In this document: positions 27,037-33,980 of the stretch, one piece after another
Position numbering within the stretch: the stretch's first letter is position 1
How the letters are laid out: the number at the start of each line of letters is the position of its first letter
Assembly (NCBI RefSeq): GCF_000026545.1
Contig: NC_011601.1
DNA from: Escherichia coli O127:H6 str. E2348/69
GTDB lineage: Bacteria > Pseudomonadota > Gammaproteobacteria > Enterobacterales > Enterobacteriaceae
Length of the DNA: 64,000 nt
Strand: one strand, 5' to 3'
Translations under genes and position numbers: made by a program
Notes under the pieces: generated by a model
Told to the model about the DNA's origin: nothing
What the model saw: the letters and a program-made list of their open reading frames with translations, nothing else
Databases searched by the model: none

Positions 27037-27717
27037 TTAGCGCAAAATTCCATACTCACTGCACAATAACCATTTCACCGGTTCATCTTCTTCTATCGCC
27101 GGAAAACGTCCTCCCGGCTCAAGAAAATAATTATCGTGTTGGTCATCATTTACCATCGAGATTTCCCAGCCGAGAACAAACGCTTTTTCCGCCCAGAAGC
27201 GATGATACAGACGCGGCGGCAGGCAAATGCCCTGCCCCGGCTTTAGCACCAGCGTTTCACCAGGTTTCATGGTACGCCGCTGACCATCAACACTCACGGT
27301 AATGACTCGTTGATCATCACAGAGATTGGCTTCGTTGGCCCAGGCCAACTGCATGCATAAGTCTCCACCGCCCCGATTGAGGATATCTTCCATTTTGTGG
27401 GTGTGAAAATGCCAGGGAGTCTGCTGATCTTGTTGGATCTGCAACATTTTCTCAGCATACGGTTTTGGATATGCCGCCGACCCCAGCGCGCCGTTGCGCA
27501 TCGTTAGCAGTGTTAGTCCCGTTTGGTTGAAATCACCACGACCAAAATCGGTGATATCCCAACCGAGCTGTAAGTCGACCACTTCTTGCCAGTTATCCCG
27601 TTCCCGCTGCAGCCAGTCATCCACCGTAAAATAGGCGAACTCTGGCAAACAAACGCGGAAGGTCTGCGCAATGGCATGTGCTTTATCAATAACATAATTA
27701 ATTTGTGAACGTTTCAT
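27037..27717 (-). CDS. Cupin-type sugar isomerase, D-lyxose ketol-isomerase-like (226 aa)
   Basis: Last gene of the PTS operon; resembles D-lyxose isomerase family proteins as I recall them; start set at MKRSQINY. Confidence 0.65.
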   Translation of the reverse strand: MKRSQINYVIDKAHAIAQTFRVCLPEFAYFTVDDWLQRERDNWQEVVDLQLGWDITDFGRGDFNQTGLTLLTMRNGALGSAAYPKPYAEKMLQIQQDQQTPWHFHTHKMEDILNRGGGDLCMQLAWANEANLCDDQRVITVSVDGQRRTMKPGETLVLKPGQGICLPPRLYHRFWAEKAFVLGWEISMVNDDQHDNYFLEPGGRFPAIEEDEPVKWLLCSEYGILR

Positions 27718-28630
27718 TGGCTTCTCCGTTGCGCATAGCAAGCCAGGCAGCGCCACGCATTCCGCTACTGTCGCCGTGCTGTGCTTTTACAATGGGAGTG
27801 GTGAATTGATCGGTGAAAACCAGTGGAGCGACTTCTGCGTTCAGATCGGTGATAAGCAGTTCCACATTCGAAAGCCCGCCGCCGATCACAATCACGCCAG
27901 GGTCAACAACGTTAACGATGGTTGCCAGCGTGCGGGCAAGCTGTTGGCGAAAACGTGCCACCTGCTGCATGGCACAAGCATCACCACGTTGTGCCAGGGT
28001 GACAATCGCCGCAGGAGTGAGCAAGTTACCAGTCATCTGTTGATAGCGTTCACTAAAACCGCTGCCGGAAACAAACGACTCCACGCAGTTGTGTTTGCCG
28101 CAATAGCAACTGACTGATGGACCATCTTCCTGCTCCGTATAGCCTGGCAACGTGATATGACCGCATTCGGCAGCATTTCCCCAGGCCCCTATAAACGGTC
28201 GTTGCTTGATGGCAATGCCACCGCCGCAGCCCGTACCAAGCGTAATACCAAATACCACGTCATAATCTTGCCCGGCACCGTCGCAAGCTTCTGATAGCGC
28301 GAAACAGTTACCATCATTGGCTATCACCACCGGTTGCCCAAGCAATTGCTGCAAATCAGCCTGTAACGCATGACCGTTAATCACCTGAATATTCGCGTTT
28401 TTAATCAGGCCAGTGAGTGGCGAGATACTGCCGGGTAAGGCGATCCCTGTCAGCATCGGTCGTTGAACGTCCCGCCTAATCTGCTCGATAAGCGCCACAA
28501 CGCATGAGACAAATTGTTGATATGTCGACTTTTGCGTCGGGCAGCGGTAACGGCGAATCTCCCAGCCATGCGCATCCATGACAACGGCGGCGATTTTGGT
28601 CCCACCAATATCCAACCCCAGATAGTGCAT
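27698..28630 (-). CDS. ROK-family sugar kinase (310 aa)
   Basis: MHYLGLDIGGTKIAAVV ATP-binding motif and cysteine/histidine-rich ROK signature region. Confidence 0.75.
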   Translation of the reverse strand: MHYLGLDIGGTKIAAVVMDAHGWEIRRYRCPTQKSTYQQFVSCVVALIEQIRRDVQRPMLTGIALPGSISPLTGLIKNANIQVINGHALQADLQQLLGQPVVIANDGNCFALSEACDGAGQDYDVVFGITLGTGCGGGIAIKQRPFIGAWGNAAECGHITLPGYTEQEDGPSVSCYCGKHNCVESFVSGSGFSERYQQMTGNLLTPAAIVTLAQRGDACAMQQVARFRQQLARTLATIVNVVDPGVIVIGGGLSNVELLITDLNAEVAPLVFTDQFTTPIVKAQHGDSSGMRGAAWLAMRNGEANETFTN

Positions 28631-28677
28631 ATCTCGTTCCTTGTTGCGTAAAAGGCGGGTCACCCCGCCCTTCTGGC

Positions 28678-31929: not shown

Positions 31930-32400
31930 TTAGCAGACATCGGATTGTGCATACTGACTAAAGAGATCAATGATTTTTTGCGGACTCGTCTCAACTAACA
32001 ATTGTTCTATGATGTCATCATCCGCCAGTGCGCCCGCGACCTGGGAAAGTAAACGGATATGGGTGGTATTTTGATCTTCAAGACGTACCGCAAATAAAAT
32101 AATACAGCGCACGCTACTGCCATCCAGCGTTTCCCAGGGAATATCCTGCCGGGTACGGCCAATTGCCAGCGTAGTATTAATCACAGCTGAAGATTTACCA
32201 TGCGGGATCGCAATATGATTTTCAAAACCAGTCGAGCCTTCCGCTTCGCGCTGCCAGACATCTTTAATAAAGGTTTCCCGACAATCGATCGCACCATCTT
32301 TTTTGAGAAGATTAGTTAATTCTTCAATCGCCTCCTCTTTATTCGTCGCTTGCATATCTAAAATAACGCGATTCGTATTCAGGATTTTTGTTATGTCCAT
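31930..32400 (-). CDS. PTS EIIA, fructose/mannitol type (156 aa)
   Basis: NHIAIPHGKS active-site His region. Confidence 0.85.
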   Translation of the reverse strand: MDITKILNTNRVILDMQATNKEEAIEELTNLLKKDGAIDCRETFIKDVWQREAEGSTGFENHIAIPHGKSSAVINTTLAIGRTRQDIPWETLDGSSVRCIILFAVRLEDQNTTHIRLLSQVAGALADDDIIEQLLVETSPQKIIDLFSQYAQSDVC

Positions 32401-32426
32401 TCGTCATACCTCATAAAATTCTGACA

Positions 32427-33980
32427 TTAAATTTCAACGACCCGAGATGTCGCATGATGTAATTTTTCCGTAATCACCATTTCAGTGACCCGCTTAATAT
32501 CGGCATCATTAAAAAAAGCGGTAACATAAGCGACCGGCATAGTGACTGTAGGCAAATTAATGGTCGAAATAATCAGTTCGATATTGTCAGGCAAAACCTG
32601 TGATAAATTCGCTGCTGAAATAACATCAACAATCGTCCATTCAGGAAATGCTCGCAGAATACGGCTTTTCAGTAGATGCGAAGTTCCGATTCCGGTTGAA
32701 CAGACCAGTAATACGCGTTTACGGGCAATTTGCCGCTCCATCGCAGCCTGAAAATGAACGGTCAGGTAACCTACTTCATCCTCGCTCACTGCATTCTCAC
32801 CCCAGGTTTTAAATACCTGATTCACCACATATTGCGTCAACCGCCAGACATCCGCTAGTTCTGCTTTAATATCTTCCAACAATGGATTACGGATATGAAT
32901 ACGATAATTTAGTCGGTTAATCAGCGGTTTAATATGCACCAATAAGCCATCATATAATGCGCTGTCTTCACTAAAATCGCAGTCCACGATGTCACTGAAT
33001 ACCGTAATTAAACGCCAGGTAATCAGACGCGCTTCATTGCTGGCCTGCATATGTGAAATAATGCTAACATCTTTTTGTCCATCAATCGCCACACCTGATG
33101 AAATGATATATTGATAAATAAACCAGACTTCATCATCGGGCAATGTATGTGCAATTCGTTGTTCTATCTTATGAATCATCTGACTGGCAACATTAAAGAT
33201 ATTTTCATCATATTGCCTGGTTTGATCTTCTTCTCTTGATAACGCATTCCCGTGCGTGTTGCGATACATCATAATAAGGATATGAGTAAAAATGTTAACG
33301 TAATAAGGTTCTCCCAAAGACCAACTTAATTCATTTTCCATATCCAGTAACAATGACTGGACAAATAACACCGCTTCTTCTCCAAAATAATGGACTAATG
33401 CTTTATAGCTTCCGGGATCCAGACGTGAATACACGACACCTTGCGTCTCATTATGGTTAATAATGCCGTTAATCAGTAATGCCATTGCCTGTCGGACTTG
33501 CCCTTCACTACCTTCAATATGCGTACCACTTGGACTGCGGATCAACGATAACCCCAACGGCGCAAGCCAGGACTCAATTACTCTCAGGTCATTAACAATA
33601 GAGGCTCCGCTGATAAAGTAGCGTTCTGACAATTTACTGATCGACGTTTCATTCGGTGTTTCACTTAATAACTGCGACGCTATTTTAACGCGCCTGGCAT
33701 TATTCATTACACCATCAATCTCTTCACATTCTGCCACCAACAAATGATCAAGATGCAGCAAATCAGCAATATTCTCCGCGCTTAACATCACACCCGCGCC
33801 AGCACGCTTCTCAACATTTATTCTCCATTGTCCCAGCCATTGCTCAAGTAAACGTAAATCACGTTGAATGGTTTTTTCCGAAACATTTAAATAGCCGGCA
33901 ATCGTAACAATAGTCGTATATTCCCTTCGAGGTAAAAGGAATCGTAATAATCTGTTTTGTCGCGAGGTAATCATTTGCAT
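32427..33980 (-). CDS. PRD-domain transcriptional regulator with PTS-regulatory domains (BglG/MtlR/LicR-like), 517 aa
   Basis: N-terminal HTH (VSEKTIQRDLRLL), central PRD-like region, C-terminal EIIB-like CSTGIGTS motif; first gene of the PTS operon. Confidence 0.75.
   Translation of the reverse strand: MQMITSRQNRLLRFLLPRREYTTIVTIAGYLNVSEKTIQRDLRLLEQWLGQWRINVEKRAGAGVMLSAENIADLLHLDHLLVAECEEIDGVMNNARRVKIASQLLSETPNETSISKLSERYFISGASIVNDLRVIESWLAPLGLSLIRSPSGTHIEGSEGQVRQAMALLINGIINHNETQGVVYSRLDPGSYKALVHYFGEEAVLFVQSLLLDMENELSWSLGEPYYVNIFTHILIMMYRNTHGNALSREEDQTRQYDENIFNVASQMIHKIEQRIAHTLPDDEVWFIYQYIISSGVAIDGQKDVSIISHMQASNEARLITWRLITVFSDIVDCDFSEDSALYDGLLVHIKPLINRLNYRIHIRNPLLEDIKAELADVWRLTQYVVNQVFKTWGENAVSEDEVGYLTVHFQAAMERQIARKRVLLVCSTGIGTSHLLKSRILRAFPEWTIVDVISAANLSQVLPDNIELIISTINLPTVTMPVAYVTAFFNDADIKRVTEMVITEKLHHATSRVVEI

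Follow-up and report, generated by a model that had tools for sequence, protein, structure and literature searches.

The frz operon serves as a marker for virulent extraintestinal Escherichia coli of avian and human origin, and it has been linked to fitness in the gut and in serum and to type 1 fimbriae. In the genome paper of the avian strain BEN2908 (2026), the region GR27, listed as "yicH..yicI" and 7283 bp long, corresponds to the frz operon of Rouquet et al. (2009) (PMC12928451), and the genes lmo2133-lmo2138 of Listeria monocytogenes have been recognised as a frz homologue (PMC2996996). As described in the literature, this Listeria locus carries two class II aldolases, a fructose-like IIC, a IIB, a IIA and a regulator, which is the six-gene core of frz; unlike in the E. 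coli operon, a ROK kinase and a cupin protein are not listed. Here, we analysed a stretch of 64,000 nucleotides (hereafter the window) of the chromosome of E. coli O127:H6 str. E2348/69 (contig NC_011601.1), in which eight genes between yicH and yicI make up the frz locus. These genes very probably represent a catabolic unit of the phosphotransferase system (PTS), which would be transcribed as one from a putative activator-dependent promoter upstream of the regulator gene. As to what the unit does, we tentatively propose that its core may be an old PTS-to-aldolase pathway found across phyla, in which a ketose 1-phosphate would be cleaved directly by a dedicated pair of aldolases under the control of a truncated PRD activator and one palindromic operator.

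Identity of the locus with frz

Eight intact open reading frames, all on the minus strand, fill positions 27037-33980 of the window (Table 1), and the RefSeq record of the E2348/69 chromosome, to which the segment 26500-34500 is 100% identical, gives the same genes. The backbone genes on either side are xanP-yicH and yicI-yicJ in this record. In K-12 MG1655, yicH and yicI are adjacent, separated by a spacer of 52 bp, and the frz genes are absent from this position. When the frz-positive allele is aligned with a K-12-like genome, the difference is confined between the yicH stop codon and a hairpin 3' of yicI, with about 12 bp of the 52-bp spacer cleanly replaced at the junction. The yicH-yicI interval of the window thus corresponds in position to GR27 of the extraintestinal strain BEN2908 and measures 7281 bp against its 7283 bp. 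In addition, both frz primers printed in a virulence-typing paper, with a product of 843 bp, match the window exactly (33556-33575 on the minus strand and 32733-32752 on the plus strand), within the regulator gene and spanning the same 843 bp. Because of this position and these exact matches, the locus is frz, already published and known since 2009, and is not in itself new. The original prediction had placed eight co-oriented genes between two backbone genes that are neighbours in reference E. coli and had likened their layout to frz; both statements hold.

The frz operon is reported to comprise three fructose-family PTS subunits, a Mga-type PTS activator, two class II aldolases, a ROK kinase and a cupin protein. 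The matches to NCBIfam, Pfam and PDB entries return this same set in the window, with a regulator of the PRD/Mga type, and they bear out the gene order read beforehand from the letters (PRD regulator, EIIA, EIIB, EIIC, two aldolases, ROK kinase, cupin). The eight genes are separated by gaps of 11-80 bp, with an overlap of 20 nt between the ROK and cupin genes, and the only convincing terminator follows the last gene; the terminator-like segment (27002-27027) is missing from frz-negative genomes. The longest open reading frames of the ROK and cupin genes start at GTG codons (28663 and 27756, respectively), which are probably not used, since RefSeq takes shorter ATG starts and the gene calls of orthologs are near those lengths.

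The three PTS subunits score above the cut-offs of the fructose-family models: EIIC with 311.6 bits in TIGR01427 (cut-off 157.55), EIIB with 100 bits in TIGR00829 (76.85) and EIIA with 128.7 bits in TIGR00848 (103.5). The phosphorylatable residues expected of a fructose-family enzyme II are also present, as the histidine motif of EIIA (AIPHGKS) and the cysteine motif of EIIB (VAACTxGIAHTY) are both conserved in at least 95% of the sequences at each position (76 sequences). Could these genes instead be one of the other characterised fructose-like PTS operons of E. coli (frv, frw, fry, fru or mng)? Weak family-level matches to their models exist, but the corresponding equivalogs all stay below cut-off: 262.8 against 426 bits for PRK10478 (the fructose EIIC model), 90.6 against 151 for PRK09913, 108.1 against 135 for PRK10474 and 297 against 793 for PRK10712, with two further scores of 249.6 against 763 and 93.5 against 153. 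EIIC likewise falls below the cut-offs of FruA and MngA. Together with the absence of the genes from the yicH-yicI position in K-12 and the exact frz primer matches, these scores refute membership in any of those operons, which we regard as extremely improbable. Presence in K-12 at this position and assignment to a different PTS operon were the two outcomes that the original prediction had named as telling against it, and neither was found.

The six-gene core, the aldolase pair and the possible fate of the sugar

A scan of one genome per species (GTDB representatives) with an alignment of the first aldolase, Ald1, returned 71 loci, which were annotated by tblastn together with six more (L006-L011). 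The order regulator-IIA-IIB-IIC-Ald1-Ald2 is kept in every complete locus among the 71 genome loci, which belong to three phyla, and it holds in Escherichia, Pantoea, Erwinia, Pectobacterium, Brenneria, Enterococcus, Pediococcus, Lactobacillus, Marinilactibacillus and Sebaldella. The ROK and cupin genes are both present in Escherichia, Salmonella, Klebsiella, most Kosakonia, Phytobacter, Buttiauxella and two Citrobacter genomes. The cupin gene occurs by itself in most Citrobacter, Superficieibacter and Izhakiella, and the ROK gene by itself in Mangrovibacter, one Brenneria genome and two Kosakonia-like loci, while Pantoea, Erwinia and Pectobacterium have neither. In one Enterococcus and one Lactobacillus genome, Ald2 is followed by a ScrK-type ROK fructokinase, and because this kinase is unrelated to the Frz ROK kinase, a hexokinase has been recruited to the core more than once, independently. 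Such repeated recruitment is a hint that the pathway gives rise at some point to a free hexose, for instance fructose or mannose. A PfkB-type kinase is a member of the six-gene core in none of the 71 loci.

The earlier description of the aldolases as two paralogues of about 285 aa is correct as to their sizes (283 and 286 aa) and their paralogy, but not if taken to mean a recent duplication. Ald1 and Ald2 are only about 31% identical, and so are old paralogues; indeed, they are no closer to one another than to GatY, KbaY or YdjI. Their genes are always found together and adjacent in the annotated loci. In the window, a 17-nt inverted repeat (29477-29493 and 29622-29638; 88% complementary) spans the 80-bp gap between them, with its arms in the coding regions, and may be due to chance.

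A comparison of catalytic residues with GatY and KbaY had been proposed with the original prediction, which held that one of the two aldolases may be non-catalytic. We aligned 78 Ald1 and 75 Ald2 sequences against KbaY, whose numbering is used here. The zinc ligands His83, His180 and His208, as well as Asp82, Glu132, Glu134, Lys228 and Asn230, are kept in all of them, as in GatY and KbaY. Therefore, residue loss gives no support to a non-catalytic member, and neither aldolase is a degenerate pseudo-enzyme. Two other hallmarks of GatY and KbaY are missing from both proteins. The first is the arginine of the DPR motif (R257 in KbaY, R331 in FbaA), which in class II aldolases binds the distal phosphate from the partner subunit. 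It is lost in all 153 sequences and is replaced by asparagine in 75 of 75 Ald2 orthologs, inside a nearly invariant WWDPN motif, and by alanine, valine, proline or serine in Ald1. The second is the GG-x-E-D-D loop with the catalytic glutamate (E142 in KbaY), a motif absent from Ald1 and Ald2; four positions after the loop glutamate site, Ald2 has Glu in 74 of 75 sequences and Ald1 has Asp or Glu in 65 of 78, although the alignment of the loop is uncertain.

These two features travel together more widely. Of the 131 cluster representatives most similar to Ald2, 84 lack both of them; Arg257 is present in 37, and 22 of these carry the Glu-Asp loop as well. From this co-occurrence, the pair marks canonical bisphosphate enzymes, with many uncharacterised relatives lacking both. 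A described case is YdjI of E. coli K-12 (PDB 6OFU), an L-glycero-L-galacto-octuluronate-1-phosphate aldolase of the same family (PF01116) and of similar size, which by its annotation acts on a ketose 1-monophosphate. It likewise lacks the arginine, with Leu or Phe at this position depending on the alignment. YdjI differs from the Frz aldolases in that it is only 31% identical, lacks the WWDPN motif and is encoded in a non-PTS operon with its own kinase, YdjH.

The family models agree in setting the two proteins apart from the named enzymes. Ald2 scores 525.7 bits against NF006042 (cut-off 405), a subfamily named only "hypothetical protein", and also passes the generic TIGR00167 cut-off; its equivalog scores remain below cut-off for FBA (278.9 against 423), GatY (246.5 against 383) and KbaY (184.3 against 542). 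Ald1 is below every NCBIfam cut-off, with its best match to TIGR01859 (208 bits) covering residues 4-234 only, and its 50 C-terminal residues are divergent and lie outside the family models. It also evolves about twice as fast as Ald2, as seen from the identities between E. coli and Pantoea (58% for Ald1 and 80% for Ald2) and between E. coli and Enterococcus (38% and 60%). A partner or helper role of Ald1 is hinted at by this rate and by the divergent C-terminus, and is not demonstrated by the loss of residues. A precedent for such a partnership would be GatYZ and KbaYZ of the gat and aga operons, which are also PTS operons encoding a class II zinc aldolase of about 285 aa and a second subunit. 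GatZ and KbaZ, however, belong to a different protein family. In RefSeq they are putative chaperones of 420-426 aa, in contrast to Ald1, a full PF01116 protein with all its zinc and catalytic residues.

The two remaining enzymes can be placed by similarity. The ROK kinase is closest to the manno(fructo)kinase Mak and has a PF00480-type match; its score against the PRK09557 fructokinase model (318.7 bits) is below the cut-off of 443. It contains the zinc-type motif of ROK proteins (CYCGKHNCVE, fitting CxCGxxNCxE) and lacks an N-terminal DNA-binding domain. The cupin protein is 49% identical over 222 residues (E 4e-64) to z5688, the D-lyxose/D-mannose isomerase of E. coli O157:H7 (PDB 3KMH/3MPB), with which it shares the cupin fold family. 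Its His103, His105, Glu110 and His172 align with His103, His105, Glu110 and His171 of z5688, which we take to be the metal ligands. The two proteins differ in genomic setting, the Frz cupin being encoded at the end of a PTS operon, and the Frz protein does not reach the NCBIfam equivalog cut-off (NF051472, 271.7 bits against 350).

Taken together, the gene content would be compatible with the following route. EIIA, EIIB and EIIC would import and phosphorylate the sugar, most likely a ketose phosphorylated at C1. The zinc aldolase pair would then split this phosphorylated ketose into dihydroxyacetone phosphate and an aldehyde, which is the least certain step. The ROK kinase and the isomerase would be lineage-specific additions that turn a free aldose of lyxo or manno configuration, either a co-product or a related sugar, into a phosphorylated ketose for glycolysis. 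Direct cleavage of a ketose 1-phosphate without a second kinase is a possibility to which we give rather less than an even chance. Several points weigh against it. Not every fructose-family PTS permease places the phosphate on C1. The substrates of ROK kinases and lyxose isomerases are free sugars, and the pathway offers no explanation of where one would come from. Loss of Arg257 is common among uncharacterised PF01116 proteins and is no proof of a monophosphate substrate, as another residue could bind a distal phosphate. Finally, no substrate of frz is named in the literature that we located, including that on frzR, Fru2R, fru2 and lmo2133-2137, a review of 2021 places frz under unknown functions, and no later paper among those located gives a sugar, in agreement with the original prediction. 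Rare ketoses of seven to nine carbons, which on cleavage would supply an aldose to the cupin isomerase, were also considered; by their stereochemistry, the common plant heptuloses and octuloses would yield erythrose or ribose, and not a sugar of lyxo or manno configuration, so that we propose no particular substrate.

The canonical alternative is a bisphosphate route, in which the ketose phosphate delivered by the PTS would receive its second phosphate from a housekeeping kinase (PfkA/PfkB or FruK), Ald2 would be a ketose-1,6-bisphosphate aldolase and Ald1 would be mainly a stabilising or activating partner, as GatZ and KbaZ are. The names given by RefSeq and NCBIfam (ketose-bisphosphate or class II fructose-bisphosphate aldolase) point in this direction, as does the passing of TIGR00167 by Ald2, and a partner role would suit the constant adjacency of the two genes and the faster evolution, divergent C-terminus and less conserved loop acid of Ald1. 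Nevertheless, the arginine that would hold the distal phosphate is missing throughout, neither aldolase reaches the FBA, GatY or KbaY cut-offs, Ald1 keeps its active site as a degenerate helper would not, and the core never includes a PfkB-type kinase. On this evidence the bisphosphate route seems somewhat less likely to us than direct cleavage.

A further explanation, that Frz is mainly a sensory or regulatory PTS that modulates other genes (the fim switch, stress fitness) with little carbon flux, would accord with the published phenotypes, which are fitness when oxygen is restricted and late in stationary phase, growth in serum and a shift of the fim promoter towards ON, and with the lack of a reported growth substrate. 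However, the catalytic and phospho-transfer residues of the core proteins are strictly conserved across the three phyla, and a kinase and an isomerase have been recruited repeatedly beside the core, both of which argue that a real catabolic pathway is under selection. For the phenotypes, not only the activator but also the metabolic enzymes are reportedly needed. A mainly sensory role is therefore improbable in our view, and a catabolic pathway built on direct aldolase cleavage stays our working proposal.

The neighbours of the core in other genomes may be informative about the substrate. In Streptococcus sp. UBA6071 (locus L081, 3662-6169), a GH1 phospho-beta-glycosidase gene follows Ald2. 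In Pediococcus (L079, 16677-20573), a YicI-like GH31 enzyme (49% identity) and a YicJ-like transporter (35%) are encoded 5-8 kb from the frz core. These glycoside-related neighbours, together with the adjacency of yicJI and frz in Enterobacteriaceae, may point to a glycoside-related substrate. In Klebsiella aerogenes (L008/L009, 13503-17671), genes for an RpiR-type regulator, a GH4 glycosidase and a PTS EIICB lie between the frz cupin gene and yicH; judged from gene spacing, the same extra unit is present in K. grimontii and K. michiganensis (L024, L031), and it resembles the agl system for sucrose isomers.

Regulator and control region

According to the Pfam scan, the Frz regulator consists of HTH_11, Mga HTH, PRD1, PRD2 and EIIB(Gat/Lac)-like domains and ends after the last of these, with neither a C-terminal EIIA domain nor a CAT RNA-binding domain. 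It therefore resembles the PRD activators of the MtlR/LicR/ManR type, with which it shares the HTH/Mga part, two PRDs with conserved histidines and an EIIB(Gat)-like domain with its cysteine, but it lacks their C-terminal EIIA(Mtl/Fru)-like domain. The protein measures 517 aa here and its orthologs 480-540 aa, except in Sebaldella, where the protein has 654 aa; the EIIA-like domain is thus missing from nearly all of them. Three residues do not vary among 73 orthologs, namely His233 in PRD1, His349 in PRD2 and Cys427 in the EIIB-like domain, and a fourth, His409, is kept in 88%. Since the HTH_11 and Mga DNA-binding domains are present and the CAT domain is absent, the RefSeq name "BglG family transcription antiterminator" is likely wrong or at least misleading for this protein. 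The only match to the PADLOC anti-phage models was a trivial one, to the HTH of the regulator.

Upstream of the regulator gene lies the palindrome TGTCC-N7-GGACA, the only match to this pattern in the window (0.05 expected). Of 73 loci, 64 (four of them from Enterococcus) have the pattern TGTCC-N7/8-GGACA in the 400 bp preceding the regulator gene, and nearly all of the 65 matches found in 1.44 Mb of fetched DNA are these sites. The terminator scan had called the hairpin at 34102-34084 a terminator. However, the arms never vary while the spacer does, which argues for a protein-binding DNA site and not an RNA hairpin, and the palindrome is probably the operator of the Frz regulator. An antiterminator of the BglG/SacY type was considered and rejected on the same grounds, as the CAT domain is missing and the upstream repeat has invariant arms without covariation and no Rfam match. 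Indeed, Rfam at a permissive threshold returned nothing between 26000 and 35000, i.e., no known riboswitch, ribonucleic antiterminator (RAT) element or small RNA.

An alignment of the upstream region from ten genomes of seven enterobacterial genera displays sharp conserved footprints amid variable sequence, with the TTATATTTA and TTTAGTATTGT blocks invariant in all ten. In the first of these we see a candidate -10 element (TATATT), preceded at a distance of 16 nt by a weak -35 (TTGTTG). Two CRP-like boxes, which are invariant blocks across the seven genera, lie about 50 and 80 bp upstream of the palindrome, and the sequence TGTGATC is found about 50 bp upstream of it in most Enterobacteriaceae. 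Two observations speak against these assignments. The promoter hexamers were read by eye, and a consensus promoter scan, which called fewer sites than it did in shuffled sequence, placed none in the conserved upstream region. Matches to the CRP consensus are not above chance (21 found, 29 expected), so it is conservation that carries the assignment to CRP.

In the proposed scheme, the regulator would be a DNA-binding PRD activator, not an antiterminator, bound to TGTCC-N7/8-GGACA beside the weak -35. Its activity would be set by PTS phosphorylation of His233 and His349 in the PRDs and of Cys427, and the operon would be switched on as phosphate drains from EIIA and EIIB. When the substrate is present, the Frz EIIA and EIIB would pass their phosphate to the incoming sugar, Cys427 would stay unphosphorylated and HPr would phosphorylate a PRD histidine. 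The activator at the palindrome, probably together with CRP as catabolite control, would then turn on the single promoter.

Table 1. Positions in the window of the frz genes, the flanking genes and the predicted control elements
Feature	Position	Strand	Remarks
yicH (AsmA family), left backbone gene	25284-26993	+	RefSeq E2348/69
Intrinsic-terminator-like hairpin and T-run	27002-27027	-	directly after the last frz gene, between convergent cupin gene and yicH; 9-bp stem, 6 GC pairs, tail CCTTATTTTT
Cupin, D-lyxose/D-mannose isomerase family, 226 aa	27037-27717	-	overlaps ROK gene stop by 20 nt
ROK-family sugar kinase, 310 aa	27698-28630	-	
Ald2, class II (zinc) aldolase, 286 aa	28678-29538	-	
Ald1, class II (zinc) aldolase, 283 aa	29619-30470	-	
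PTS EIIC, fructose family, 363 aa	30482-31573	-	
PTS EIIB, fructose family, 104 aa	31598-31912	-	
PTS EIIA, fructose/mannitol family, 156 aa	31930-32400	-	
Frz PRD regulator, 517 aa	32427-33980	-	
Putative activator-dependent promoter	34047-34074	-	-35 TTGTTG (34074-34069), 16-nt spacer, -10 TATATT (34052-34047), by eye
Palindrome TGTCC-N7-GGACA, candidate operator	34085-34101		arms invariant, spacer free
Two CRP-like boxes	34137-34185	-	TGCGA-N6-TCACG (34185-34170); AAAATGTGATCTG with TGTGA half-site (34152-34137)
Hairpin just 3' of yicI stop codon	34230-34260	-	also in the 52-bp spacer of frz-negative strains
yicI (alpha-xylosidase)	34275-36593	-	co-oriented with frz, immediately upstream of it
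yicJ (GPH transporter)	36603-37985	-	co-oriented with frz, upstream of yicI

Distribution, origin and significance of the operon

Of 5426 complete E. coli genomes, 1605 (29.6%) carry the complete operon of 6.9 kb, nearly always as a single chromosomal copy; its identity is 99% or more in 1318 records and about 98% in 289, and other frz-positive genomes are 98.3-99.5% identical. Of the 1611 frz matches in these complete genomes, one lies on a plasmid record, and two copies occur in at least one genome. The presence of frz in E. coli is all-or-none, and the sole partial copy among the 5426 genomes is that of E. coli HS-02 (hit H60, NZ_CP172818.1), in which only 268 bp of the 5' end of the regulator gene are left, annotated as "HTH domain-containing protein". 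This fragment is a deletion remnant, which shows that the operon can be lost by deletion.

The original prediction regarded the genes as inserted between the two backbone genes. In its specific form, this would make frz a horizontally acquired islet that entered the yicH-yicI spacer in the B2 lineage, in keeping with its presence in fewer than a third of the E. coli genomes on an all-or-none basis. Likewise, the scan of GTDB representatives returned no E. albertii or E. fergusonii locus. However, the order yicJ-yicI-frz-yicH is shared by about 12 Citrobacter species, Klebsiella aerogenes, K. grimontii, K. michiganensis, Superficieibacter, Phytobacter ursingii and Escherichia sp. MOD1-EC7003. 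Mangrovibacter has yicJ-yicI-frz, with yicH not detected in the fetched flank, and in Kosakonia and Phytobacter diazotrophicus yicH adjoins the cupin gene, with yicJI not detected upstream. Moreover, the divergence of the Frz proteins tracks the relationships of the species and is similar to that of the flanking genes. Between E. coli and Citrobacter, the frz products are 77-96% identical and those of yicJ, yicI and yicH 90, 88 and 82%; between E. coli and Klebsiella, the values are 65-94% and 85, 87 and 70%, respectively.

The base composition can be read in both ways. The GC content at third codon positions (GC3) is 0.33-0.41 in the regulator, IIA and IIB genes (31598-33980) and 0.52-0.59 from IIC to the cupin gene (27037-31573) and in the flanks, which might suggest a foreign origin, but the same step is common to Salmonella, Citrobacter, Klebsiella, Kosakonia, Pectobacterium and Brenneria (not to Pantoea) and, being shared by most Enterobacterales, must be old. 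Nor are there signs of a mobile island: between 26993 and 34275 we found no integrase, transposase, tRNA or repeat-bounded junction, and a repeat search of 26800-34400 found no direct or inverted repeats at the flanks, only short matches in two copies that are due to chance. The shared position in other genera, the flank-like divergence and the lack of mobility genes and repeats therefore make insertion doubtful, and the deletion remnant of HS-02 offers a way by which the operon can be lost. An old residence at this site followed by loss in most E. coli lineages seems at least as likely as a recent insertion, and we consider the islet in B2 to be an unlikely, if arguable, account.

This does not make the module immobile, and on longer timescales it appears to have moved. 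The identities to proteins of a Sebaldella genome (79% for IIB and IIC, 70% for Ald2) and a rare Salmonella serovar with the operon at another site, both of which can also be taken in favour of an islet, suggest as much. In Salmonella serovar Ituri and a related assembly (L006/L007), the eight-gene frz lies upstream of yicJ, with integrase-arm and transposase HTH fragments alongside in L007, and this looks like a separate acquisition.

In the window, the selenocysteine tRNA gene (selC, 38278-38372) lies 290 bp past yicJ, which places frz about 4.3 kb from the junction of selC with the locus of enterocyte effacement (LEE). After selC, the E2348/69 record shows an IS3 remnant and then the LEE type III secretion island (espF, escF, espB, espD, espA, sepL, escD, eae), and the GC content falls to about 0.43-0.45 from 38 kb onward.

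E2348/69 is an enteropathogenic strain of the B2 lineage, in contrast to the extraintestinal BEN2908, so that frz follows lineage and not pathotype. The analysis also suggests that the operon, used until now as a virulence marker, reflects the history of the lineage (kept in B2 and lost elsewhere) rather than the acquisition of a virulence island. Beyond the known locus, four leads emerge: the non-canonical aldolase signatures, the conserved candidate operator, the core of six genes and the position, which is likely ancestral. The candidate operator and promoter could be used in a reporter to screen for inducers, and intact aldolases without the bisphosphate hallmarks narrow the chemistry to try. 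As the functional unit would be the six-gene core common to Listeria, Enterococcus and plant-associated Enterobacterales, genetics in any such host would be informative. If true, a direct PTS-to-aldolase route would represent a new substrate class for the PF01116 aldolases and a route to the frz sugar.

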